Positions 17,345 to 55,756 of a DNA stretch of 64,000 nt are shown here, in pieces. The notes under the pieces are model-generated. The model searched no databases, was not told the origin of the DNA, and was given only the letters and a program-made list of their open reading frames with translations. The position numbers and the translations under genes were made by a program. The first letter of the stretch is position 1, and the number at the start of each line of letters is the position of its first letter. The DNA is taken from positions 241,662 through 305,661 of the forward strand of contig CP060230.1 of NCBI GenBank assembly GCA_023898605.1. Direction: 5' to 3'. Origin of the DNA: Candidatus Nomurabacteria bacterium (lineage in GTDB: Bacteria; Patescibacteriota; Minisyncoccia; Phycocordibacterales; UBA9973).

Positions 17345-17522
17345 ATGTTTATTAAAAAATTTTAATTATTTTTGCATTTAATTTATACCACAAAACAAAT
17401 ATATTTGTGCGCCCATTCGTAGCTTTACCTTGTTCTTCGTAGCCTTGGCAAAGAAGAAGCGAAGGAGGGCCACCCGCGCATATAAAGTTTTCAAAACTTT
17501 ATTGGATTATACAAATCCAATG

Positions 17523-17596
17523 TCCGCCCACTTGGACTCGAACCAAGGACCAATCGCTTAAGAGGCGAGTGCTCTACCAGCTGAGCTATGGGCGGT
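17523..17596 (-). tRNA. tRNA-Lys(CUU)
   Basis: Reverse complement: acceptor ccgccca/ugggcgg, D-arm AGCUCAGCUGGUAGAGC, anticodon loop cuCUUaa (C-U mismatch at the top of the stem), T-arm cuuggTTCGAGTccaag. Confidence 0.75.
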
Positions 17597-17607
17597 AATT
17601 TCAAAAC

Positions 17608-17755
17608 CCATAGCGAAGCCAAAAGCTGCCTGTCCACCGTAGCCCGTCAGGGCGAAGGTGGAAGCTATGGGCGGATTTGTATCGTTCCATAGCGAAGCCA
17701 AAAGCTGCCTGTCCACCGTAGCCCGTCAGGGCGAAGGTGGAAGCTATGGGCGGAT
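17608..17755. repeat. Two tandem copies (period 79 nt) of a 68-nt hairpin unit whose end equals the first 12 nt of tRNA-Lys (ccgcccatagct)
   Basis: Units 17608-17675 and 17687-17755 are essentially identical. Each holds a nested hairpin (ccacc-gtagcccgtcagggcgaa-ggtgg) between ccatagc...gctatgg arms. Confidence 0.75.
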
Positions 17756-34601: not shown

Positions 34602-34808
34602 AGAGATATTTTAGCATATTGCAAAATCTCATTTTTTTGGTACTATCTCTATACATCTATGAGAAAACACTTACCGATTGAAAGTGCATAGATTCATATT
34701 CCGCGGTACCCGCCAGAATGACTTCATGTCGGGCTGGGCTCAGCTTGCTGAGCGTACCGCGAGATAAAACATATTCCGCGGTAGCTCAGCGGTAGAGCAA
34801 CCGGCTGT

Positions 34809-35426
34809 GAAATACACTTACAAATCTTATATAATCAAAACATGGTTAAAAAAGATTTGAGGAAATATTCCGACCGTCGTGAGTACCTTATAAAGAAAGT
34901 GTCAGAAAGAAGAAAGCTTCTTTTAGACAAAACGATAGAATACAAAGGTGGCAAATGTATTGTTTGTAAACACAACAAATGCAAGCGCGCACTAGTTTTT
35001 CATCACTTGAACCCAAAAGAAAAATCTTTTGGTATTTCTTCAAAAGGTATAACGAGATCGTGGTCTAGTTTACAAAAAGAATTAGACAAATGCGTTCTCT
35101 TGTGTGCAAATTGTCACGCAGAAGTACATGACGGTATAACGCAGCTTCCTATCGAAAGATAGGTTGAAAACGAGGTGAATTCGGGGAAGCCCTTCGTGGG
35201 TAATCCCGAGCCAATCCTTCGCCTAAGGCTTCGGATTGCAAAGCAGGCCCTAAATTATTAGGAAGCATGCCTTGCCGTAGCTTTGTCGAAGGCAGGTGTA
35301 GAGACTATCCTTTATGGAGTAGCCCCAATCAAAAAAATATTTTGATCGGGTCGAAGCGCCTCGCACCCTAGTCATATTGACGGGTGATGATATAGTCCAT
35401 CCCTATTAGAAATTTTAGGATAAGTG
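34809..35426 (+). mobile_element. Group I intron (~618 nt) with an HNH homing-endonuclease ORF in its 5' part and the catalytic core in its 3' part
   Basis: 5' exon ends in U and the intron ends in G (omega-G). Conserved P7 elements: R-like gtagAGACTAtcc (35317-35329) and S-like gatgATATAGTCCatcc (35387-35403) forming GACUA/UAGUC. GC-rich paired segments in an AT-rich genome. Confidence 0.8.
34842..35162 (+). CDS. HNH homing endonuclease (intron-encoded)
   Basis: Motif CIVCKHNKCKRALVFHHLNPKEK...LLCANCHAEVHDG (Cys pairs, HH, N, terminal H). Confidence 0.8.
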   Translation: MVKKDLRKYSDRREYLIKKVSERRKLLLDKTIEYKGGKCIVCKHNKCKRALVFHHLNPKEKSFGISSKGITRSWSSLQKELDKCVLLCANCHAEVHDGITQLPIER

Positions 35427-35465
35427 TAACCGGTGGGTCGCAGGTTCGATCCCTGCCCGCGGAGC

Positions 35466-35527
35466 CCTTCCTCCCTTTGGTCGTCAGGGTCTTTGACCAT
35501 GACAAATATACTGAAGGAAGGCACTGA
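35466..35527 (+). repeat. 62-bp direct repeat, copy 1, beginning 2 nt after the tRNA-Asn 3' end
   Basis: ccttcctccctttggtcgtcagggtctttgaccatgacaaatatactgaaggaaggcactga, 61/62 identical to 36878-36939. Internal inverted repeats ccttcc/ggaagg and tggtc/gacca. Confidence 0.85.
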
Positions 35528-35577
35528 TGATACTGAGAGAGAATACATCGAAGTAGAAGAAGTGCTATGATGTAAAT

Positions 35578-35817
35578 ATGTATCATGTTTATATACTTGA
35601 ATGTAAAGATGGTTCTTTTTATGTCGGATCAACAAATAACCTAGAAAAAAGAATAAAAGAACATAATACTTCTAAAAATGGCGCCCACTATACAAAAATA
35701 CGCAGGCCAGTTATCTTAAAATATTCAGAAACATTTGAAACATTAAAAGAGGCTCGTAAAAGAGAGTCGGAAATAAAGGGCTGGAGAAGAGAAAAGAAAA
35801 TAAACTTATTTAAATAA
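35578..35817 (+). CDS. GIY-YIG nuclease domain protein (79 aa)
   Basis: YILECKDGSFYVGSTNNLEKRIKEHN matches GIY-YIG motifs (GIY..YVG, R, E, N). Confidence 0.75.
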   Translation: MYHVYILECKDGSFYVGSTNNLEKRIKEHNTSKNGAHYTKIRRPVILKYSETFETLKEARKRESEIKGWRREKKINLFK

Positions 35818-36020
35818 AAAATTGCTCTTTTTTCGCATGTTTCAGAACTTTCAAAGATTTCTTTTACTCTGCGAGCGACAGAAAGTACTGTAGCTACAGT
35901 GATTTGATACTCATAATCAGCATTTGTATGCTCTGATAATTCAATTTCCAAAAGTTGTATTTTGTCGTGATACTCTTGATGCTTTTTATTATAGATATCC
36001 TTAGTAATACACAAGTTCAT
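35688..36020 (-). CDS. hypothetical small protein; its 3' part is antisense to the GIY-YIG gene, so its extent is doubtful
   Basis: N-terminal ~65 codons (35825-36020) lie in otherwise unassigned sequence. The rest overlaps 35688-35817 on the opposite strand. Confidence 0.25.
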   Translation of the reverse strand: MNLCITKDIYNKKHQEYHDKIQLLEIELSEHTNADYEYQITVATVLSVARRVKEIFESSETCEKRAIFYLNKFIFFSLLQPFISDSLLRASFNVSNVSEYFKITGLRIFV

Positions 36021-36086
36021 CTTCGTGAGAAAAGTCTATCTTATTCATTACTTTAGTTTACATACCTATTATGATATAATCAACGT

Positions 36087-36257
36087 ATGGCTAAGAAAAC
36101 TCCACAATCACAAAAGGTTACTTTTACAGCAAAGAAGGTCGTCAAAGAGCCGACTGTGGTTTCTTTCAATACAAAACAAGGTCGAGTAAGTTTTACTGCT
36201 CGGGTAAATGTTGAGAAGCCAGTGCAAGTCAGCTTCAAGGCAAAGAATAAAAAATGA
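36087..36257 (+). CDS. small repeat-containing protein (56 aa), putative antitoxin-like partner of the PIN protein
   Basis: Manual translation MAKKTPQSQKVTFTAKKVVKEPTVVSFNTKQGRVSFTARVNVEKPVQVSFKAKNKK. Its TGA stop overlaps the ATG of the next gene (ATGA). TATAAT 8 nt upstream. Confidence 0.45.
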   Translation: MAKKTPQSQKVTFTAKKVVKEPTVVSFNTKQGRVSFTARVNVEKPVQVSFKAKNKK

Positions 36258-36808
36258 AACTCTACCTAGATACAAACGTTATTCGAGATTACCTCGAAAA
36301 TAGAAATACAAACTCTATACAGCTATTGGAGCTTGCCAGACATAAGGGGTGGGAGTGTGTTACGTCTGCCTTTACGATGATGGAAGTTGCGGACCTTGAA
36401 CAAGATAGTATCTTCTTTCAAAAAACGGTCATACGTAAAAAATGGGATGCTGATAAGTTCTTGCGAGAACGCAGACAAAAAGAACTTACAGATAGCGATT
36501 ATCAAGACCTTGAAGAATATCTGGACGTAGTACCTGTACGTCTACCTTTTTTGACTTTCTTCAACTTGAGCGAAGACGGTTGGCAAATAGCACAATATAT
36601 TGCTTCGCACTCTGTTTTATCGGCAGTTGATACCATACACCTAGCAACGGCATACTCTGCGAAAAGCGACATTGTAGTTACAAACGATAGTGGCTTCATA
36701 AAGCACGGAAATAAGATACTGGAAAAGAGTAAGCGAGCAGGACAGATAGCAATCTGTTTGCCAGAGAAGGTTGAAGAAACGGCACAAAAACTAGGCATGA
36801 CTACCTAG
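36254..36808 (+). CDS. PIN-domain protein (VapC-like nuclease fold, 184 aa)
   Basis: LYLDTNVI...D..HLA.A..........VTND acidic-residue pattern of PIN domains. Confidence 0.6.
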   Translation: MKLYLDTNVIRDYLENRNTNSIQLLELARHKGWECVTSAFTMMEVADLEQDSIFFQKTVIRKKWDADKFLRERRQKELTDSDYQDLEEYLDVVPVRLPFLTFFNLSEDGWQIAQYIASHSVLSAVDTIHLATAYSAKSDIVVTNDSGFIKHGNKILEKSKRAGQIAICLPEKVEETAQKLGMTT

Positions 36809-36877
36809 GGGTATGCCAACAAACTTGAGGCCCTGTAACATTTTGCCATTCTATAGTTCGGAATGCGTCCAGCGAGT

Positions 36878-36939
36878 CCTTCCTCCCTTTGGTCGTCAGG
36901 ATCTTTGACCATGACAAATATACTGAAGGAAGGCACTGA
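36878..36939 (+). repeat. 62-bp direct repeat, copy 2
   Basis: See copy 1. Together they delimit a ~1.35-kb cassette carrying the GIY-YIG and small-protein/PIN genes. Confidence 0.85.
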
Positions 36940-37139: not shown

Positions 37140-37412
37140 ATGGGGGGAAAAAATTTTAATAAAAACCATCCTGAAAGATTGGATGATGAAGTTTTTATCA
37201 CAAACGCTACTGATAAGTTTGATTTTGAAGAACACAGATCAAGCTACGATGCTGTTGGCTGGAAAACCAAACGCAGAGGTGATGTATCCTACGACATAGA
37301 TGGTAAACCATTGGGACAAAGATGGCCTGGGTCATTCCCTGTTTTTGCGAAGATTGCTGAAATCGAAAAATCTGAAAACGGGAAAGAAATTCTGAAAAGA
37401 CTTCTTCCTTGA
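37140..37412 (+). CDS. hypothetical protein (90 aa)
   Basis: ORF followed by a terminator at 37435-37466. Confidence 0.45.
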   Translation: MGGKNFNKNHPERLDDEVFITNATDKFDFEEHRSSYDAVGWKTKRRGDVSYDIDGKPLGQRWPGSFPVFAKIAEIEKSENGKEILKRLLP

Positions 37413-37467
37413 CGAAACAATCCCGCCAGTACGGAAACCCGTCGCTGAGCGGGTTTTCTTTTTATTT

Positions 37468-37612
37468 AGTTTGAAGTGCCACTATCGGAAACACCTCAAA
37501 AATCTTAAAAACTTCCAATTCCCTTTTAATAGCATCCCAATTCAGAGTGGTGCCTGTCCGCCTCTGGCGGGAACCTGCCTTTGCCGGCATGCAGGCTTGT
37601 CTACTAGATGGA
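37468..37612 (+). repeat. Structured repeat family, copy A (~145 nt), ending in a GC-rich Y-shaped module at 37552-37595
   Basis: Aligns along its length with copies at 38149, 38936 and 39756. The Y module is gcctg-[ccgcc tct ggcgg]-aa-[cctgcc tttgcc ggcagg]-caggc. Confidence 0.8.
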
Positions 37613-37683
37613 GCTAGCTATTGACACTCAACAGAATATATTATAATGTAATACCAATTACGGTTATTTCACATTGTATTTGA

Positions 37684-38097
37684 TTGGTTTTCAGAGAAGA
37701 TTTTGTCTTTTGTGATAACCAATTAAATATAGAAGATATGAAAAGTTTAATTGATAAAATTAAAGGAACATTTATTTCGGCTCAAGAATTATTTGATACA
37801 TTCAAAGCTTTACAGCTTATGTCATCAGAAGATTTAATTGCCTTTTGGCAAACCATACAATTTACAATAGAGACCGAGGAAGCAAAATTAACATCCGATG
37901 ATAAAAAGAAAATCGGATACATTGAAAAAGTAATTGTGGAAAATATGGTAAATCTTTCCAAAGACGAACCTTCTCTTAAAGAAAAGTTTTATCAGATGGT
38001 TCTTGTAAGGGACAAGAAAAGAGACCCAATAGGAATGAGTAAATTGTTTGGAGCTAATTCAGACTACGAAAGTTCCTTAAGTGAAAAATTAAAATAA
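37684..38097 (+). CDS. hypothetical protein (possibly starting at MKSLIDK, 37738)
   Basis: ORF bounded by repeat A upstream and terminator plus repeat B downstream. Confidence 0.45.
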   Translation: MVFREDFVFCDNQLNIEDMKSLIDKIKGTFISAQELFDTFKALQLMSSEDLIAFWQTIQFTIETEEAKLTSDDKKKIGYIEKVIVENMVNLSKDEPSLKEKFYQMVLVRDKKRDPIGMSKLFGANSDYESSLSEKLK

Positions 38098-38148
38098 ATC
38101 CACTTTGTGGTAGAAACTTCTACCGCTTGGTGGATTTTTCTTTTTATT

Positions 38149-38255
38149 AGTTCTGAAGTGCCACCATCGGAAACATCTCAAAAATCTTAGAAAACTCTAA
38201 CTCTTTTTAATAGCAACCCGATTCAGGGTTCTGAACTCGTCCACTAGAGGAAGCC
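38149..38255 (+). repeat. Structured repeat family, copy B (5' two-thirds only; the GC-rich Y module is replaced by ggttctgaactcgtccactagagg)
   Basis: Over 80% identity to copy A across the first ~85 nt. Confidence 0.7.
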
Positions 38256-38354
38256 ATTAAAATCACTTTGTAAAACGAGGTGATTTTTTGATACCCAAAT
38301 AGGGTTCAGAACTTTTATAATAAAAAGAACACTTCTTGCGAAATGTTCTTATTA

Positions 38355-38900
38355 CTAATTTTTCAAATCACTACTAAGGTTGCTAGCAAAACGCCTTATG
38401 GCAGGTATTACATCGTGTCCAGTTAGATGTCGTAGTAGGTATAAAAAGTTTTGCGTATCTTTGTTGTTATCACAAAAACTTTCCAAACCATTTACAAGAG
38501 CATCTACTTTACGCGAAGTATCCCAAGCAGATAAGTTTACTTCTTTTATATCAACCGTAAGTGAAGGCATTAAAGTTTCAATACTCGCTATGTCTTCATA
38601 CTTTCTAATGAGCCTCTCAACACTGTTAAGATTTTCATCAGTGGCGGGCATTTTCAAAGATTGTAGATACATCCAACAAGTAATTTGCCAAAAAAGTTCT
38701 TTAATAAAGTTCTCAGAGTATTCGTACTCTTCGGGTGCTTCAACCGAACTTTTATAGAAAAGGTTTTCTTGTTTTCGTAATGCAAACAACCATTTTACAA
38801 ACTGTTCTGTAGATGTAACTACTGAAGTGTCTGTACCAAGTAGTAATTTTCGTATTTTTTCTCTCATAGAACAATGATTTATTAAAACATAATATATCAT
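38355..38900 (-). CDS. hypothetical protein (possible start at MREKIRK, 38867)
   Basis: ORF between repeat copies B and C. Confidence 0.45.
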   Translation of the reverse strand: MIYYVLINHCSMREKIRKLLLGTDTSVVTSTEQFVKWLFALRKQENLFYKSSVEAPEEYEYSENFIKELFWQITCWMYLQSLKMPATDENLNSVERLIRKYEDIASIETLMPSLTVDIKEVNLSAWDTSRKVDALVNGLESFCDNNKDTQNFLYLLRHLTGHDVIPAIRRFASNLSSDLKN

Positions 38901-38935
38901 AAATTATGTATTTGTAAATAGGTATATAAGTTGCG

Positions 38936-39083
38936 AGTTCTGAAGTGTTACCACCGGAACCACCTCAAAAATCTTAAAAATTCCAATTCCCTTTTAATTG
39001 CAGTCCAATTCAGAGTGGCGCCTGTCCGCCTCTGGCGGGAACCTGCCTTTGCCGGCAGGCAGGCTTGTACAACAGAGGGAGCC
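38936..39083 (+). repeat. Structured repeat family, copy C (full length; Y module at 39020-39064)
   Basis: Near-identical to copy A, including the Y module and the downstream gtacaacagagggag tail. Confidence 0.8.
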
Positions 39084-39218
39084 AAAAAAATATTCTATTT
39101 CTGCTATAATGTACTTACACAAGAATCCTTGCACAATTGTATAAGTAGGTGTATAATATGTCTATCACTATGAAAGAGACCCTTGTGTGGATTCGTCCAC
39201 ATTGGGGGCTTTTTCTTT

Positions 39219-39698
39219 TCAGGCTCTGGTAGAAAATTTATGGTACAAATCGTTTAGAAAAGTGATTTCTATATTCTTGTTTCGTATTAAAATAGAACAT
39301 TTATTTTCATCTGGAGACAAAACTCCGATGATAGCATTATTGTCTTTAAGAAATTCTACAAGACATCCAAAATCTCCGTCTCCTGTAATTAAAATACATT
39401 TATCAAAAGATTTAGTGTAGAAATCAGAGACCGTTTTCAGTACTAATTCTGCATCACAATTCCCTTTGATTTTCTCTCCTACTGACACCGTTTGTTTAAA
39501 GACCAAAATATAACCACAGCTTTGTAAATGTTCATAGAATTTAACTCTTTCTGGTACCAAGCCGATGAAAAGATAAACATTGCTAGCATTATATTTCTGT
39601 CTAAGCCATCCCCTCAATTTCTTGTAATCAAGATTAAAACCAAGTTCTTTAGCAGAGCGGTATAAATTATTACCATCTATATAAATATTGGTTTTCAT
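39219..39698 (-). CDS. NYN-domain (LabA/Zc3h12a-like PIN-fold) putative RNase
   Basis: IYIDGNNLYRSAKELG...GNCDAELVL...LITGDGDFGCLVEFL: NYN acidic-residue pattern. Confidence 0.6.
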   Translation of the reverse strand: MKTNIYIDGNNLYRSAKELGFNLDYKKLRGWLRQKYNASNVYLFIGLVPERVKFYEHLQSCGYILVFKQTVSVGEKIKGNCDAELVLKTVSDFYTKSFDKCILITGDGDFGCLVEFLKDNNAIIGVLSPDENKCSILIRNKNIEITFLNDLYHKFSTRA

Positions 39699-39755
39699 AA
39701 TTTATATAATACCACTTATATATTATTTTCTAAAACCACTTTCGAATATACTCTC

Positions 39756-39817
39756 GCGCCTGTCCGCCTCTGGCGGGAACCTGCCTTTGTCGGCAGGCAG
39801 GCTTGTCCAGTGGAAAG
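39756..39817 (+). repeat. Structured repeat family, copy D (Y module plus tail only)
   Basis: gcgcctgtccgcctctggcgggaacctgcctttgtcggcaggcaggcttgtccagtgg. Confidence 0.75.
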
Positions 39818-39980
39818 ATTTTAAAAATTAAAAATAGACAAAAAATATGCTATTATAAAAATAAGGTTGGACTTATGTACCGTAAAATAAAGCCAATAGT
39901 ACCAAGGTATCTACTGGACCCCTCAACCCGTCGCGCCGCAAGGCTACTAACGACGGGTTTTCTTCTGCTATAATACCCTC

Positions 39981-40187
39981 ATGCAAAAAATAGCCACAAA
40001 AATATTTATTTATTCATCTATCACTTTTGGTATAGTTGGCATAACTCTAGTTGCCATAGGTGGTATGGATGGTGAATCTACAGCATTTAGCGAGGTCCTG
40101 ATACGACTACTACAAGCCACTATATTTATCATCCTTCCCTCTTTTGCCCTCAGTCTCGCTGGCAAATACCTAAACGGGAAGATATAA
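39981..40187 (+). CDS. small two-helix membrane protein (68 aa)
   Basis: Two hydrophobic segments. Confidence 0.4.
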   Translation: MQKIATKIFIYSSITFGIVGITLVAIGGMDGESTAFSEVLIRLLQATIFIILPSFALSLAGKYLNGKI

Positions 40188-40703: not shown

Positions 40704-40982
40704 ATGAATATAGAAAAAAACGACATCGATATACTAAAGCATGTAGAATCTCTGACAGAAAAGATAAACGATTCTATGGAAAAACAAGGCAAGAAGGTTT
40801 TCGAAAGATATCCCGTGACCTTTGGGATACTCATACTCTCTGGAGTGATAATGGTTAGCGAGGGAGTAAAGATCATACTCGGAAACCTAGGTCTTTTCGA
40901 CAATAGCCCCTATGTTGTACTAGGTGTTGGCATACTTATACTTGTGATAACTGGAAGCTTGTATAGAAAGTTAAATAAATAA
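40704..40982 (+). CDS. small membrane protein (92 aa; start moved to MNIEKND, directly after the upstream stop)
   Basis: Two TM helices. Terminator at 40981-41008. Confidence 0.45.
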   Translation: MNIEKNDIDILKHVESLTEKINDSMEKQGKKVFERYPVTFGILILSGVIMVSEGVKIILGNLGLFDNSPYVVLGVGILILVITGSLYRKLNK

Positions 40983-41006
40983 AACAGCCCCCTAGTTGGG
41001 GGCTTT

Positions 41007-41687
41007 TTATTCGATACTTGCAGGTCCATATATACAAAAATTTCTTCCGGTATAAACTGCCCACATTCTGTCTCCATAACAATAATGCCACCATTCTCCC
41101 GGATACCAAACGAAACCTTGTGATTCCATTCTTTTGCGAAGAATTTTTCTATTTTTTCTTTGGTTTTTTGTAAGCAAACTAAAAAACAAAAAACTTTTTG
41201 GAAACATAGGGAACCTCGTCCTTTCTTCTTTTGTAGAATCTAAAGATGGATAAGGCGAACCCATGTCCAATAAATTTCCATTTTTGTCCGCTAAAGTTAC
41301 GTCTATAGCCCCACCACAGTTATGATTAGCAAGTAGATTTGGTCTTGCTATAACCATAGAAGTTTTTCTTTCTATCTCTTCGTTGCTCAATTTTGGAAAA
41401 AGTTTTTTTATATTATTGAAAGCAACTAACCAAGACTTTTGTTGATCTCCGACAGACCTATATCCCTCTATAACAACAAGCGAAAGATTATCTGGTAAAG
41501 ATTCGGAAACCTTGTATAGCTTATCTGCGATGGATTTTCTGACAAAAAACTTCTGTTCATATGATTTTTTGATAATACCCAGCTTCAGCTTTGGATTTTC
41601 TTCAAGAAGAACAAGTGTCTCACCATTTTCATATATTTTGACGCTGCTCCAAGCATCTCTAGATAAAACTTTTCTTATTTGTTTCAT
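41007..41687 (-). CDS. D-alanyl-D-alanine dipeptidase (VanX/DdpX family)
   Basis: VIEGYRS...HNCGGAIDVTL...GEWWHY zinc-dipeptidase motifs. Start moved to MKQIRKV. Confidence 0.7.
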   Translation of the reverse strand: MKQIRKVLSRDAWSSVKIYENGETLVLLEENPKLKLGIIKKSYEQKFFVRKSIADKLYKVSESLPDNLSLVVIEGYRSVGDQQKSWLVAFNNIKKLFPKLSNEEIERKTSMVIARPNLLANHNCGGAIDVTLADKNGNLLDMGSPYPSLDSTKEERTRFPMFPKSFLFFSLLTKNQRKNRKILRKRMESQGFVWYPGEWWHYCYGDRMWAVYTGRNFCIYGPASIE

Positions 41688-41791: not shown

Positions 41792-42127
41792 ATGTCAACG
41801 ACCAAGGAAGAAGCTCGTCTTAAAAAAGAACATGCTCGACTAAACAAACAGTATGAAAAATTCATTTTTAAACTTCGCTGGGATTTTTTTTCAAAACGAG
41901 AAAATAAAATACCTACGAGTGACAAGGTGGTAGAGATAATGACCCAGCAAGAGAGAGAGGACCTGAGAAGGTTGCAATCTGTTGCAATAAATAGATGGAA
42001 CGAGTACGTAACTCCAATAGCAGAAAAGTGGTGGAGAGACCGCGGCTGGGGAGTTATATGGCCAGATGATGACTCAAAGCCTATGCAAGCCTATAAACTT
42101 GATCCAGAAAAAGAAACAGCCCCCTAG
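41792..42127 (+). CDS. hypothetical protein
   Basis: ORF. Its terminator at 42114-42143 is identical in sequence to the one at 40981-41008. Confidence 0.4.
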   Translation: MSTTKEEARLKKEHARLNKQYEKFIFKLRWDFFSKRENKIPTSDKVVEIMTQQEREDLRRLQSVAINRWNEYVTPIAEKWWRDRGWGVIWPDDDSKPMQAYKLDPEKETAP

Positions 42128-42360
42128 TTGGGGGCTTTTTTTATGCATTCTTTTTTCTCACAGGAATAAATATTCCGAGAAACAACCAGCCGAGAATGAT
42201 GACAGCCGAACCAACAAGGGAGCAAGCTGTCAGAAAATCAAATATCTTTTGTGAATCCATGGTACTAGCTTTTTTCGCATATTAACCAAATATCTCTATA
42301 ATGTCAAAAATAAGTATTTTTCTGTTATAATCTAGTCACTTATAAACCAAGAAAAATATT

Positions 42361-43589: not shown

Positions 43590-44610
43590 CCAAAACCCCT
43601 CCAGCTACCCCTCAAGCAGAACACATTGCTGTTCTTTATAGTACACACTAGGAATTCTAAAATCAATCACTTCTCTCGGTCGGTCATTGATGAAGGAAAG
43701 AATACTTTCAATTTCTTCATCAGTTACGGTACTAACGTCTCTCTTCTTGGGTACAAAACATCTAATCCATCTATTGGTATTCTCTACCAGCCCCTTCTCC
43801 CATGAATGATAGGGATGTGTGAAGTATATGTTAGTATTTAATTGCTCTTCAATCACTTTCCAGTGATTGAAAGCGATGTCATTGTCAGTGGTTATAGTTT
43901 TAAGAGATTGACCATTGAACATTTCAGAAAGCGCGTGATTGATAGTCACGTGTTTTCTGTTTGGGAGCCTCTTTATGAGAGTATGTTTAGTTAAGCGATC
44001 AGTCGCCACAAGAAGTGACCAGGTGCTTTTTTTAGAAACAATAAAATCTACCTCCCAGTGACCAACACCAACTAATACGGGCCTATTTTTAATATATTTT
44101 CTATTATCTTTAGGGTTATCATATTTATACCTCTTCCTTCCACTCTTTTTCTTGTTCCATGACCAAAACAGGTACCTTTCTAGACATCTAGAGTCAATAA
44201 ACTTATATATTGCTTTATCTGAACATGTTATTTCATGTTCTTTATCTAAATACCCACTTATTTGTTTAGGTGACCATTTTTCAATAAGTTTCTTCTCCAC
44301 AAACCCAACTAAGAATCTATCCATAGAGACTTTCAAGCACTGCCTCTTTGATCTCCATCTTTTAATATATGATCTATGTTGGGCTTTATCTGCTATATAT
44401 TCTCCATTTACTCTATTTCTGTTGACTTCACTACTTATAGTACTTGGGCTTCTACCTAATAGCATAGCTATATCTCTAATCTTTATGCTTCTACTCAATG
44501 ATTTTTCAATCACAAATCTTTCCTCAAAAGAAAGATGTTTATATTGTTTTTTCTTTTTCATATGACAATAAACTTAACTTATAAATTGTTCTGCTTCAAA
44601 GTTCGTTGGG
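43590..44610 (-). mobile_element. IS30-family insertion sequence (~1 kb), boundaries approximate
   Basis: DDE transposase ORF. Imperfect terminal inverted repeats sharing aagcagaaca near 43611-43622 and 44590-44601 (reverse complement). Confidence 0.6.
43605..44561 (-). CDS. IS30-family transposase (N-terminal HTH, DDE catalytic domain)
   Basis: HWEVDFI, TDNDIAF, PYHSWEKGLVENTN motifs typical of IS30 transposases. Confidence 0.85.
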   Translation of the reverse strand: MKKKKQYKHLSFEERFVIEKSLSRSIKIRDIAMLLGRSPSTISSEVNRNRVNGEYIADKAQHRSYIKRWRSKRQCLKVSMDRFLVGFVEKKLIEKWSPKQISGYLDKEHEITCSDKAIYKFIDSRCLERYLFWSWNKKKSGRKRYKYDNPKDNRKYIKNRPVLVGVGHWEVDFIVSKKSTWSLLVATDRLTKHTLIKRLPNRKHVTINHALSEMFNGQSLKTITTDNDIAFNHWKVIEEQLNTNIYFTHPYHSWEKGLVENTNRWIRCFVPKKRDVSTVTDEEIESILSFINDRPREVIDFRIPSVYYKEQQCVLLEG

Positions 44611-44626
44611 GGACCGTTATTTTATT

Positions 44627-46402: not shown

Positions 46403-46723
46403 TTAGAATCTTCTATCTTGAGAATGACAGTCTCTACATTTTAGAGAATCAACTCTTGCTGGGTCTGGCTGGAACGGAAGTTCTGTTATAGCCTTACCAC
46501 AAGATGCACATGACCAGTCACCACTGAACATTTGTCTAGGACCTCTGTCTCTAGAACCTGAACCTCTTCTGTCTCCTCCCTTATTCTTTGAGAAACAATC
46601 TCTACATTTTAGAGAATCAACTCTCTCAGGATCTGGTTGGAATGGAAGCTGTGTTATAGCTCCACCGCAAGAAGAACATGACCAGTTACCACTGAACATT
46701 TGTCTGTCGCCTTGATTTTGCAT
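46403..46723 (-). CDS. tandem-duplicated zinc-ribbon protein with an Arg/Gly-rich linker
   Basis: Two copies of RQMFSG-WSC-SCG-AIT-LPFQPDP-RVDSLKCRDC joined by KNKGGDRRGSGSRDRGP. Confidence 0.55.
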   Translation of the reverse strand: MQNQGDRQMFSGNWSCSSCGGAITQLPFQPDPERVDSLKCRDCFSKNKGGDRRGSGSRDRGPRQMFSGDWSCASCGKAITELPFQPDPARVDSLKCRDCHSQDRRF

Positions 46724-55517: not shown

Positions 55518-55658
55518 ATGGCAGCAAAGAAGAAAGTGGCAAGAAAAGCTTCTAAGAAGAGAGCAGCTCCAAAGAAGAGAACTGCAAAAAAAGCTTCTAA
55601 GAAGAGAGCAGCTCCAAAGAAGAGAGCAGCTAAAAAAACTTCTAAAAGAAGAAAGTAA
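55518..55658 (+). CDS. Lys/Ala-rich basic mini-protein (46 aa; histone H1-like), paralog of 43287-43382
   Basis: Manual translation MAAKKKVARKASKKRAAPKKRTAKKASKKRAAPKKRAAKKTSKRRK. Two hairpin terminators follow (55690-55715, 55716-55747). Confidence 0.5.
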   Translation: MAAKKKVARKASKKRAAPKKRTAKKASKKRAAPKKRAAKKTSKRRK

Positions 55659-55756
55659 AGACCACAAAAAAACGAAAGCCTTCTCCTATCAAGAGGGTTT
55701 TTGTTTTGGCAAAAGAAAAACCTCTGCCATAAGCAGAGGTTTTTCATATTGATTGC

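Follow-up and report, generated by a model that had tools for sequence, protein, structure and literature searches.

We analysed a 64,000-nucleotide (nt) window from the genome of a Candidatus Nomurabacteria bacterium (contig CP060230.1), a member of the Candidate Phyla Radiation (CPR), in which four copies (c1 to c4) of a repeat of about 150 nt separate a series of short genes. The positions given below are those of the window. L numbers denote contigs of other strains and loci of relatives, the relatives being viewed as 8-kb pieces. Direct-repeat search and alignment recovered the four copies, all on the plus strand, in agreement with the original prediction, a reading of the nucleotide sequence alone that had placed four copies here in one orientation. 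The copies lie within one 2.4-kb stretch (37.4-39.9 kb), and repeat scans together with a covariance-model search revealed none elsewhere in the window beyond those already noted. Repeats c1 (37468-37615) and c3 (38936-39083) are composed of a 5' module (37468-37549 and 38936-39017), a GC-rich module (37552-37596 and 39020-39064) and a tail (37597-37615 and 39065-39083). Repeat c4 (39756-39819) contains the GC module (39758-39802) and the tail (39803-39819). In c2 (38149-38316), the 5' module (38149-38225) is followed by a core at 38226-38255 with the sequence GGGTTCTGAAC-TCGTCC-ACTAGAGGAAGCC, a terminator hairpin (38262-38289) and a box, ACCCAAATAGGGTTCAGAAC (38293-38312). This copy had been described as a 5'-only fragment ending at 38255. 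It indeed has no GC module, but it is more than a 5' part, since the tail TCGTCCACTAGAGGAAGCC is retained and the core is unbroken. Therefore, c2 represents the uninterrupted form of the unit. The 85-nt 5' module itself begins with a second core-like inverted repeat, GTTCTG-N12-CGGAAC (GTTTG..CGGAAAC at the start of c1), the arms of which are constant and the spacer of which is unlike in each copy. The copies are 80-89% identical to each other, compared with 98-99.8% identity among strains, and a segmental duplication of the 3' region of one gene, considered earlier as an explanation, was not seen.

Four genes lie next to or between these units. The first, upstream of c1, encodes an orphan protein of 90 amino acids (aa) (37140-37412, plus strand), has its own terminator at 37433-37458 and gave no match in Pfam, PHROGs or PADLOC. 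Between c1 and c2 lies a 119-aa gene (37738-38097, plus strand) and between c2 and c3 a 170-aa gene (38355-38867, minus strand), both without a family match and both absent in L001, L002 and L003. The short genes proposed between the repeats are thus present, but 119 and 170 aa, the exact products called in public assemblies, are likelier sizes than the 137 and 181 aa proposed. An NYN/LabA-like gene of 159 aa (39219-39698, minus strand; Pfam NYN 1.1e-16, PADLOC NYN 9.5e-13) lies between c3 and c4 and is itself a repeat-flanked unit of the array. The conserved right flank is formed by a 68-aa membrane-protein gene (MQKIATK..., 39981-40187, plus strand), which is directly preceded by a core in L072 and L077. 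PADLOC and PHROGs searches of the cassette proteins yielded nothing beyond NYN and one weak Peptidase_S51 match, and the cassette genes in the window are orphans apart from the PIN, GIY-YIG and NYN genes.

On the left the island is anchored by a tRNA-Asn(GTT) gene (34775-35466, plus strand), the exons of which (34775-34808 and 35427-35466) were read from the sequence. A group I intron of 618 nt (34809-35426), matched by Rfam RF00028 at 35094-35419 with 62.1 bits (E 2.6e-14), splits the gene in the anticodon loop. The intron holds an HNH-like open reading frame (ORF) at 34842-35162 with a weak HNH match of 16.7 bits, below the Pfam cut-off, and the same intron and exon junction were found in L076. 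Both ARAGORN and the Rfam tRNA model miss this split gene. The variable DNA starts at 35528, just past the tRNA end at 35466, which is the location expected of a tRNA-linked island. The last 5 nt of the tRNA and 61 nt of its downstream flank form the first copy of a 66-nt direct repeat (35462-35527, plus strand), and the second copy (36874-36939, plus strand) is 97% identical to it and preceded by AGTTCGGAATGCGTCCAGC. The two copies enclose a strain-variable block (35528-36873, plus strand) with a GIY-YIG gene (35578-35817; Pfam 1.1e-19), a 56-aa ORF (36087-36257) and a PIN gene (36254-36808; Pfam 4.3e-9). As read from the sequence, the block ends in a core-like AGTTCGGAATGCGTCCAGCGAGTCC at 36855-36879.

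Gene blocks that differ between strains at the repeats

Contigs of other strains were found in public assemblies by means of the exact NYN and 90-aa proteins. The contigs L001/L007 and L002/L008 come from the same species and are 99.8% identical to the window over 9.2 kb. Comparison of L001 and L002 with the window revealed occupied and empty sites at the repeats. The stretch from c1 to c3, with the 119-aa gene, c2 and the 170-aa gene, is missing in both, and a single hybrid repeat, L1h, is left. Between NYN and the position of c4, both carry three extra genes (68 aa, 107 aa and Peptidase_S51), and this block is bordered by a truncated copy of the GC module, L1t, and a full repeat, L1s, which overlaps the S51 stop codon. 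In addition, the block 35528-36873 with the GIY-YIG gene, the 56-aa ORF and the PIN gene is missing, and one copy of the 66-nt repeat is left. Among more distant relatives, tRNA-Asn is followed directly by the NYN module in L080 and L102, with other genes in between in L077 and L084.

In the hybrid L1h, c1-like sequence gives way to c3-like sequence within the 5' module. The window copy c4 corresponds to L1t on the left and to L1s on the right, with the junction in the first 30 nt of the GC module. The position of the breakpoint within the repeat thus varies, as is characteristic of homologous recombination and not of a fixed crossover point. Short-read contigs end or branch inside the repeats, and public contigs break about 100 nt past the 90-aa gene, inside the repeat. 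The Logan contig L012/L013 spans 1488 nt, with its ends exactly at the GC modules of c1 and c3. Taken together, the block differences and the contig breaks indicate that the repeats bound strain-variable gene blocks. Beyond about 40180, L002/L008 contain entirely different genes (NUDIX, AspRS and others), so that the variable region extends to the right of the repeat array. A further polymorphism was found in relatives: L070 contains two tandem units of flank, small RNA, NYN and core, compared with one in L073 (99.3-99.6% identical), and past the core upstream of NYN the two loci diverge from just after GGTGGAGCC.

The units therefore delimit blocks of presence and absence, and it is through homologous recombination between units that cassettes disappear or become merged. 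The gene-repeat-gene-repeat layout, for which a cassette character had been suggested, is upheld by the repeat-bounded gene blocks in which near-identical strains differ and by related units that bound arrays elsewhere. Based on these comparisons, the explanation that we favour, with moderate confidence, is that the repeats are att-like boundary units of an integrase-less array of accessory cassettes, which is turned over by recombination between the units. The array would have been built up between tRNA-Asn(GTT) and the conserved 68-aa membrane-protein gene. Its generic unit, which recurs in many metagenome contigs of Parcubacteria type, comprises an inverted-repeat core of about 30 nt, a terminator hairpin and a GTTCGAAC box, copying the layout of the tRNA-Asn 3' end. 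In the lineage of the window the unit has the extra 85-nt 5' module, and its core is in most copies interrupted by the 45-nt Y-shaped composite. Cassettes might arrive by recombination at the same units, through either homology-dependent exchange or an unlinked recombinase that recognizes the core, and the array might have grown as one insertion followed another, at the tRNA-Asn flank or at units already in place.

The conserved core and the GC-rich module

Relatives of the NYN protein numbered 163 in metagenomes, and those listed are 77-90% identical to it. Eighty of these loci were fetched and compared with 47 control loci. A core of about 30 nt with the consensus CATTCGAACATCGTCCCARGTTCGGAGCA, which ends in GGAGC(C/A), is represented in the 3' part of c2 by a lineage variant. 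At E <= 1, a profile of the core matched 28 of the 80 NYN loci, several of them with more than one copy (five in L144, four in L084, three in L077 and two each in several others), and none of the 47 controls. Its sole match in the window is c2 (nhmmer, 38227-38258, E 0.0025). Cores are found on both sides of NYN with 1-5 genes of either strand between them, and their orientation relative to NYN is uniform but for one weak match. The core forms an imperfect inverted repeat, TTCGAAC-N10-GTTCGGA. When this helix, the only one tested formally, was examined in 28 distinct copies, 77% of the cells paired, and the covariation score was 0.201 compared with 0.140 in shuffles (reached by 5 of 500). Judged from the sequence, such pairing is compatible with a protein-binding or a hairpin-forming site and proves neither. 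Other helices, picked out by hand (5' module with tail; GTTCN with N'GGAGC), have more than one possible pairing register and were set aside. A reading of the core as a reverse-strand peptide (LLRTWDDVRMS...) was also rejected: it is protein-like, but the frames span only 21-75 codons and that of c2 is shifted.

Downstream of each core there are typically about 8 nt, then a terminator hairpin (..GGTTATTTTT) and then a box, for example ACCTTAGTAGAAGTTCGAACCTAA. The generic box across relatives is GTTCGAAC, and in the lineage of the window, L096 and L092 every box is the palindrome GTTC-N-GAAC. Comparison of loci with cores (L078, L090, L084 and L070) and loci with genuine tRNA-Asn genes (L077, L076 and L080) revealed that the tRNA-Asn genes have the same terminator and GTTCGAACC box downstream as the cores. 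Moreover, the flank that follows a core in L070 and L073 is the flank that follows tRNA-Asn in L080. The shared terminator, box and flank make the unit a paralogue of the tRNA-Asn 3' end plus its flank, with the core in the position of the tRNA end. The likeness is one of position: the sequence similarity to tRNA-Asn 3' ends that a decayed tRNA end would show is marginal in the core (shuffle p 0.004-0.32). The part of c2 at 38257-38316 is 85% identical to L090 (E 3.6e-12). A unit of the c2 type, with 5' module and core and no GC module, occurs in L096 at 70% identity and in the same position and orientation by NYN, and the profile of the 5' module matches L096 at 1025-1110 (E 5.8e-19).

The NYN gene is conserved among these loci. 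At the DNA level, the homology extends beyond the ORF by about 35 nt on the upstream and 70-95 nt on the downstream side. Downstream of NYN lie a promoter (TTGCAC at 39129-39134, TATAAT at 39152-39157) and a predicted RNA of about 55 nt (about 39164-39219, plus strand; promoter and RNA together 39129-39219), which is convergent with NYN and ends in the terminator that it shares with NYN. Promoter and RNA are conserved in about 60 loci; 9 of the 18 predicted pairs of the RNA show compensatory changes, with strong covariation of the inner stem. In general form, this mini-gene consists of a TTGACT/TTGCAT-N17-TATAAT promoter, ATCACTATGAAAGAGACCC, a hairpin and a T-run; it always accompanies NYN, and its ATG is not constant. 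The RNA is absent from Rfam. Its arrangement with NYN looks like a nuclease/antisense-RNA pair similar to toxin-antitoxin systems. In L080 and L102 the distance between the NYN module and tRNA-Asn is 103-142 nt. The neighbours of NYN differ at almost every locus, and the same gene families occur on either side of it in different loci; the cassette genes of the arrays include GNAT, Fic, NUDIX, TspO, S51, nucleotidyltransferase, PIN and GIY-YIG genes and many orphans. Small free-standing GIY-YIG genes were found within 1-3.5 kb of NYN or tRNA-Asn in L066, L079, L088/89/91 and the window (35578-35817), and L079 has HNH and PIN genes there as well. The GIY-YIG, HNH and PIN genes may contribute double-strand breaks that drive cassette exchange. 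The 77-90% identity of NYN extends across many uncultured Parcubacteria-type genomes, the housekeeping protein Fmt of the present organism being at most 55% identical to anything.

The 45-nt GC module gave three matches with at most one mismatch in the window, at 37552-37596, 39020-39064 and 39758-39802, with none expected by chance (100 shuffles), and a covariance model of the module with filters off matched exactly these three. Its GC content is 67-71% in a window of 36-37%. A GC-rich module in AT-rich surroundings was thus correctly recognized in the original prediction, and the figures of 75% in 35% given there were too far apart. The predicted Y-shaped fold was reproduced as both the minimum-free-energy (MFE) and the centroid structure for c3 and c4. 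However, both strands of the module fold to the same degree, whether as RNA or DNA (z -2.1 to -3.0). It is therefore a nested palindrome and not a strand-specific structure. Alignment with c2 revealed that in c1, c3 and L1s the TCTGAAC of the core is replaced by the 45-nt module and a few flanking bases. The four aligned copies of the module are 99% identical. Of their two substitutions, one is in a loop and the other breaks a pair. In the strain copy L1t half of the module is lost and the fold is gone. Neither exact matches to a 22-mer of the module nor diverged full copies were found in the genome, metagenome and viral contig collections.

Parts of the module do occur separately in relatives. 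Hairpin 1 alone (GCCTGT-CCGCC-TCT-GGCGG) is present in L074 with 20 of 20 identical positions, placed between AACAT and CGTC of the core and inverted relative to it, and a second core of L074 contains a hairpin-1 variant with 1-2 substitutions at the same point. Another GC-rich hairpin lies between GTTCG and GAGCA of the core in L077 and L097, and L097 also has a hairpin-2-like CCTGCC-TTCGCA-GGCAGG beside the box. GC inserts thus break the core at three different positions in three lineages. Going by these alignments, the Y is probably a lineage-specific composite of GC palindromes inserted into the core. It appears to be a secondary insertion with no apparent function of its own. Like repetitive extragenic palindromic (REP) elements and GC clusters, hairpin 1 is found in either orientation at otherwise homologous sites. 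On the other hand, only three copies of the module exist in the window, all inside units, and no gene of RAYT or HUH type was seen in the window or in about 15 array loci.

Similar structures were noticed next to tRNA genes. Upstream of tRNA-Lys (17522-17595), the stretch 17608-17755 (minus strand) contains two perfect 69-nt copies, each starting with the first 11 nt of the tRNA-Lys, CCGCCCATAGC, and enclosing a GC-rich Y-shaped palindrome, CCACC..GGTGG-ACAGGCAGC, which resembles hairpin 1. A similar Y module with a duplicated tRNA-Asn 5' end lies upstream of tRNA-Asn (34697-34770). The GC palindromes at tRNA 5' ends possibly belong to the same class as the GC module.

Several other repeats and signals were recorded in the window. 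Downstream of c4, the stretch 39830-39975 contains a promoter-like site and about 90 nt that end in a terminator, ACCCGTCG..CGACGGGTTTTCTT, resembling that of the 90-aa gene, AACCCGTCGCTGAGCGGGTTTTC; it is 93% conserved in L001 and could be a small RNA or the remnant of a gene 3' end. Further right, terminator hairpins of 94% identity, AAACAGCCCCCTAGTTGGGGGCTTTTT, at 40977-41008 and 42109-42140 surround a D-Ala-D-Ala dipeptidase-like gene and a 111-aa gene. Partial duplications of tRNA-Leu lie beside the intact genes (4604-4655/4686-4737, 3' half, 96%; 15490-15532/15534-15576, 5' half, 91%), scars of the type left by integration or recombination at tRNA genes. A 111-nt direct repeat of 86% identity (46427-46537/46595-46705) inside a small zinc-ribbon ORF (46403-46723) and three tandem 45-nt units in a lysine-rich stretch (55525-55659) look like coding repeats.

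Alternative explanations and implications

Several observations weigh against the boundary-unit explanation. Scanning of the window ORFs and of about 15 array loci revealed no tyrosine or serine recombinase (Phage_integrase, recombinase or rve family), and no integrase gene stands beside the att-like site as it does in tRNA-linked islands. The two polymorphisms of this species could each have arisen by deletion from a fuller ancestor, and no gain was observed. The near-invariance of the GC module, while the 5' modules of the same copies have diverged by 11-20%, hints at a constraint outside the favoured explanation. As the similarity of core and tRNA-Asn is marginal, the notion of a pseudo-tRNA end rests on position. 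The full c-type unit is known from one species and L096. Confinement of the units to one island is shown locally, for 64 kb here and for the 8-kb pieces of the other genomes. Finally, the organism is without close relatives in the collections searched. Compared by the neighbouring Fmt gene, the nearest genomes are 51-52% identical and the nearest of 5.8 billion proteins 55%, all from Nomurabacteria/Parcubacteria-type genomes, and a cross-species DNA comparison of the full unit is therefore impossible.

The main rival treats the units as genuine sites of site-specific recombination that function like the attC sites of integrons or the att sites of phages. An unlinked recombinase would bind the core arms, arranged as about 9-6-9 nt (TTCGAACAT / CGTCCC / AGGTTCGGA), and circular cassettes would be excised and inserted at the tRNA-Asn end and at resident cores. 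We regard this as possible but doubtful, and rank it above a non-coding RNA, an element of MITE or REP type (MITE, miniature inverted-repeat transposable element) and a regulatory module. Across organisms, no part of the unit is better conserved than the core, whose imperfect inverted repeat shows some compensatory change, and the cores share one orientation. L070 and L073 differ by the duplication of exactly one core-to-core unit, and past the core upstream of NYN their flanks diverge immediately behind GGAGCC, which corresponds in position to the tRNA 3' end. The spacing of the half-sites is constant within a lineage (GTTCGAAC elsewhere; GTTC-N-GAAC here and in L096 and L092), the arms of the 5' core-like hairpin are kept with a different spacer in each copy, and the cassettes are integrase-less and functionally miscellaneous, as in integrons. 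A dedicated enzyme is difficult to reconcile, however, with breakpoints that lie at different repeat positions in the two polymorphisms and reveal no fixed crossover, with a core that the GC module disrupts in most copies here, and with duplicated segments of 66 to about 150 nt, longer than typical identity cores. Nor was a recombinase gene found in or near the arrays examined, and viral contigs gave no match to a degenerate core pattern or to the NYN protein and thus no phage attP lead.

It is distinctly unlikely that the unit is a non-autonomous mobile element of MITE or REP type spread by transposition or, in a weaker form, that the GC palindromes are tiny inserts that target the core. A transposase is available 4 kb away: the IS30-family insertion sequence at 43598-44612, assigned by an HTH_38 match and a DDE-type motif seen by eye, encodes a 318-aa transposase (43605-44561, minus strand) between 26-nt imperfect inverted repeats (43598-43623 / 44587-44612). 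This is the only transposase-like gene found, and the scanned ORFs include no IntI-like integrase, both of which had been proposed as places to look. The inverted repeats of the IS30 element compared by eye with the unit ends have only GTTCTG in common. In favour of mobile GC palindromes, they occur at three core positions and in both orientations in different lineages, share 20 of 20 positions between organisms with NYN about 80% identical, and have counterparts beside the 5' ends of tRNA-Lys and tRNA-Asn. But neither a repeat scan nor reading of the unit ends by hand revealed terminal inverted repeats, and there was no sign of a target-site duplication. All copies have one orientation and lie in one 2.4-kb stretch with none elsewhere in the 64 kb, and the GC module occurs in the window only inside units, with no RAYT- or HUH-type gene in sight. 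The suggestion of a MITE family was accordingly dropped for the unit.

Less probable still is a repeated structured non-coding RNA, formed by the Y module or the whole unit of about 150 nt and acting in cis or in trans on neighbouring genes. The module does form a stable three-way junction by both MFE and centroid (z -2.1 to -2.9) and is almost invariant next to 5' modules that differ by 11-20%. In the fold of c3, the 5' module UUCCCUUU forms a helix with the tail AGAGGGAG that shows, by hand, a few apparently compensatory differences. Such hand-found helices pair, however, in more than one register, and folding of the whole unit is no better than that of shuffles (z 0.03 to -1.45). No Rfam 15 family matched at its gathering score, and at the E-value threshold the best match was anti-hemB with 18.3 bits (E 1.1). 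The unit sits just past the terminator of the upstream gene and is framed by neither a consensus promoter nor a terminator. Folding of the module is no weaker on the opposite strand or as DNA, one of its two substitutions falls in a loop and the other breaks a pair, L1t has lost half of it and does not fold, it is missing from c2, and hairpin 1 is inverted relative to the core in L074. The RNA candidate put forward earlier is thus not supported.

Very improbable is a portable promoter-proximal module with operator boxes for one transcription factor before each accessory gene: the GTTCGAAC box does lie 5-15 nt upstream of the -35 element of the next promoter in many units, and promoter-like TTGACA/TATAAT or TGnTATAAT was read from the sequence after c1 and c3 and in weaker form after c4, but the promoter scan lists only the site after c4, the orientation is fixed whatever the strand of the next gene (that after c2 is on the opposite strand), the units mark borders of presence and absence, and the terminator lies between core and promoter.

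CPR bacteria have tiny genomes, and their gene gain and loss are little known. The locus is a compact hotspot of accessory-gene turnover, resolved at the level of strains, between dedicated non-coding boundary units, and in many uncultured relatives one conserved gene is surrounded by units of this kind. Core, terminator and GTTCGAAC box by tRNA-Asn or NYN provide a searchable signature for the flexible gene pool of CPR bacteria, which permits a recombination system of unknown type to be tested against plain homology-driven exchange. For annotators, a word of caution is that the GC-rich Y is probably a palindromic insert and not an RNA gene. A bolder proposal, which we consider unlikely, is that of an undescribed integron-like capture system of CPR bacteria, with the inverted-repeat core as cassette site, the tRNA-Asn 3' end as primary attachment site and an unlinked enzyme that would carry promoter-bearing cassettes in and out. 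If this were true, the GC palindromes in the core would lock cassettes in place, and the highly conserved NYN gene with its convergent small RNA could be part of the platform and not cargo.

Comparison with known systems

A literature search revealed no description of this type of locus and nothing relevant on CPR integrons, CPR genomic islands or NYN proteins in Patescibacteria. The locus is most like tRNA/tmRNA tandem islands and integron or CALIN arrays, yet belongs to neither class, because no integrase was found in the parts scanned and the attC architecture is missing. The tandem islands at ssrA of Dehalococcoides contain a conserved, element-derived motif just upstream of the repeat of the gene 3' end (PMC3146451), and integrase-less units kept in accreted arrays have been termed cis-mobilizable elements (CIMEs) (PMC5704250). 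Similar to tRNA/tmRNA tandem islands, the array lies directly 3' of a small-RNA gene and has strain-specific content. As in the ssrA islands, direct repeats of one orientation occupy the position of the gene 3' end, and the motif before them aligns poorly with the gene; as with CIMEs, some units are without integration genes. In contrast to tandem islands, no integrase was found in any unit examined, the cassettes are small (0.3-2.5 kb, 1-5 genes), and the repeated unit of about 110-150 nt includes a terminator and a second box. The likeness of core and tRNA end is marginal, and the breakpoints fit homologous and not site-specific exchange.

With integron arrays and CALINs, which Cury et al. 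(2016) reportedly defined as clusters of attC sites without integrase, the locus shares small, miscellaneous and often orphan genes between repeats of one orientation that contain an imperfect inverted repeat, a content that differs between close strains, and the absence of a recombinase inside the cassettes. Unlike in integrons, the window cassettes carry their own promoters and terminators, the genes lie on both strands, and the anchor is a tRNA gene. In attC sites, the terminal 7-nt cores R'' (RYYYAAC) and R' (GTTRRRY) pair, and a single bulged hairpin of 57-141 nt with extrahelical bases is formed. The units begin with AGTTCTGAAG... and end with ...GGAGCC, without R'' and R', and of these motifs only AAC/GTT remains in the core arms TTCGAAC/GTTCGGA. 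When folded whole, as RNA or as DNA, the units form several local hairpins but no stem that joins the two ends (z 0.03 to -1.45). The platform of intI, attI and Pc is likewise missing, as no integrase family was found in the scanned window ORFs or the approximately 15 array loci. The attC-like sites proposed originally are thus not borne out in their terminal cores, in a single long imperfect hairpin or in a neighbouring intI.

Integrative mobile elements exploiting Xer (IMEX) and pdif modules are integrase-less and bounded by short sites in which a 6-nt spacer separates inverted arms, and they gather in tandem at a single chromosomal site. The array resembles them in all these respects. However, the units have no similarity to known dif sites and do not alternate in orientation as pdif sites do; a dif site or replication terminus was rejected, as the GC skew has no inflection at the locus. 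The short GC-rich palindromes of mitochondrial GC clusters and double-hairpin elements and of bacterial REP and bacterial interspersed mosaic elements (BIME) recall the GC module, which shares with them nested GC palindromes in an AT-rich genome and modular hairpins in either orientation. It differs in occurring, within the window, only inside boundary units, with neither a target duplication nor an associated transposase seen. In the minimal mobile elements of Neisseria, cassettes are exchanged between conserved flanking genes by homologous recombination, and dedicated enzymes are not involved. Similarly, the present locus holds different cassettes between the same conserved flanks across strains; where the flanks in Neisseria are conserved genes, they are here dedicated non-coding units, repeated within one array.

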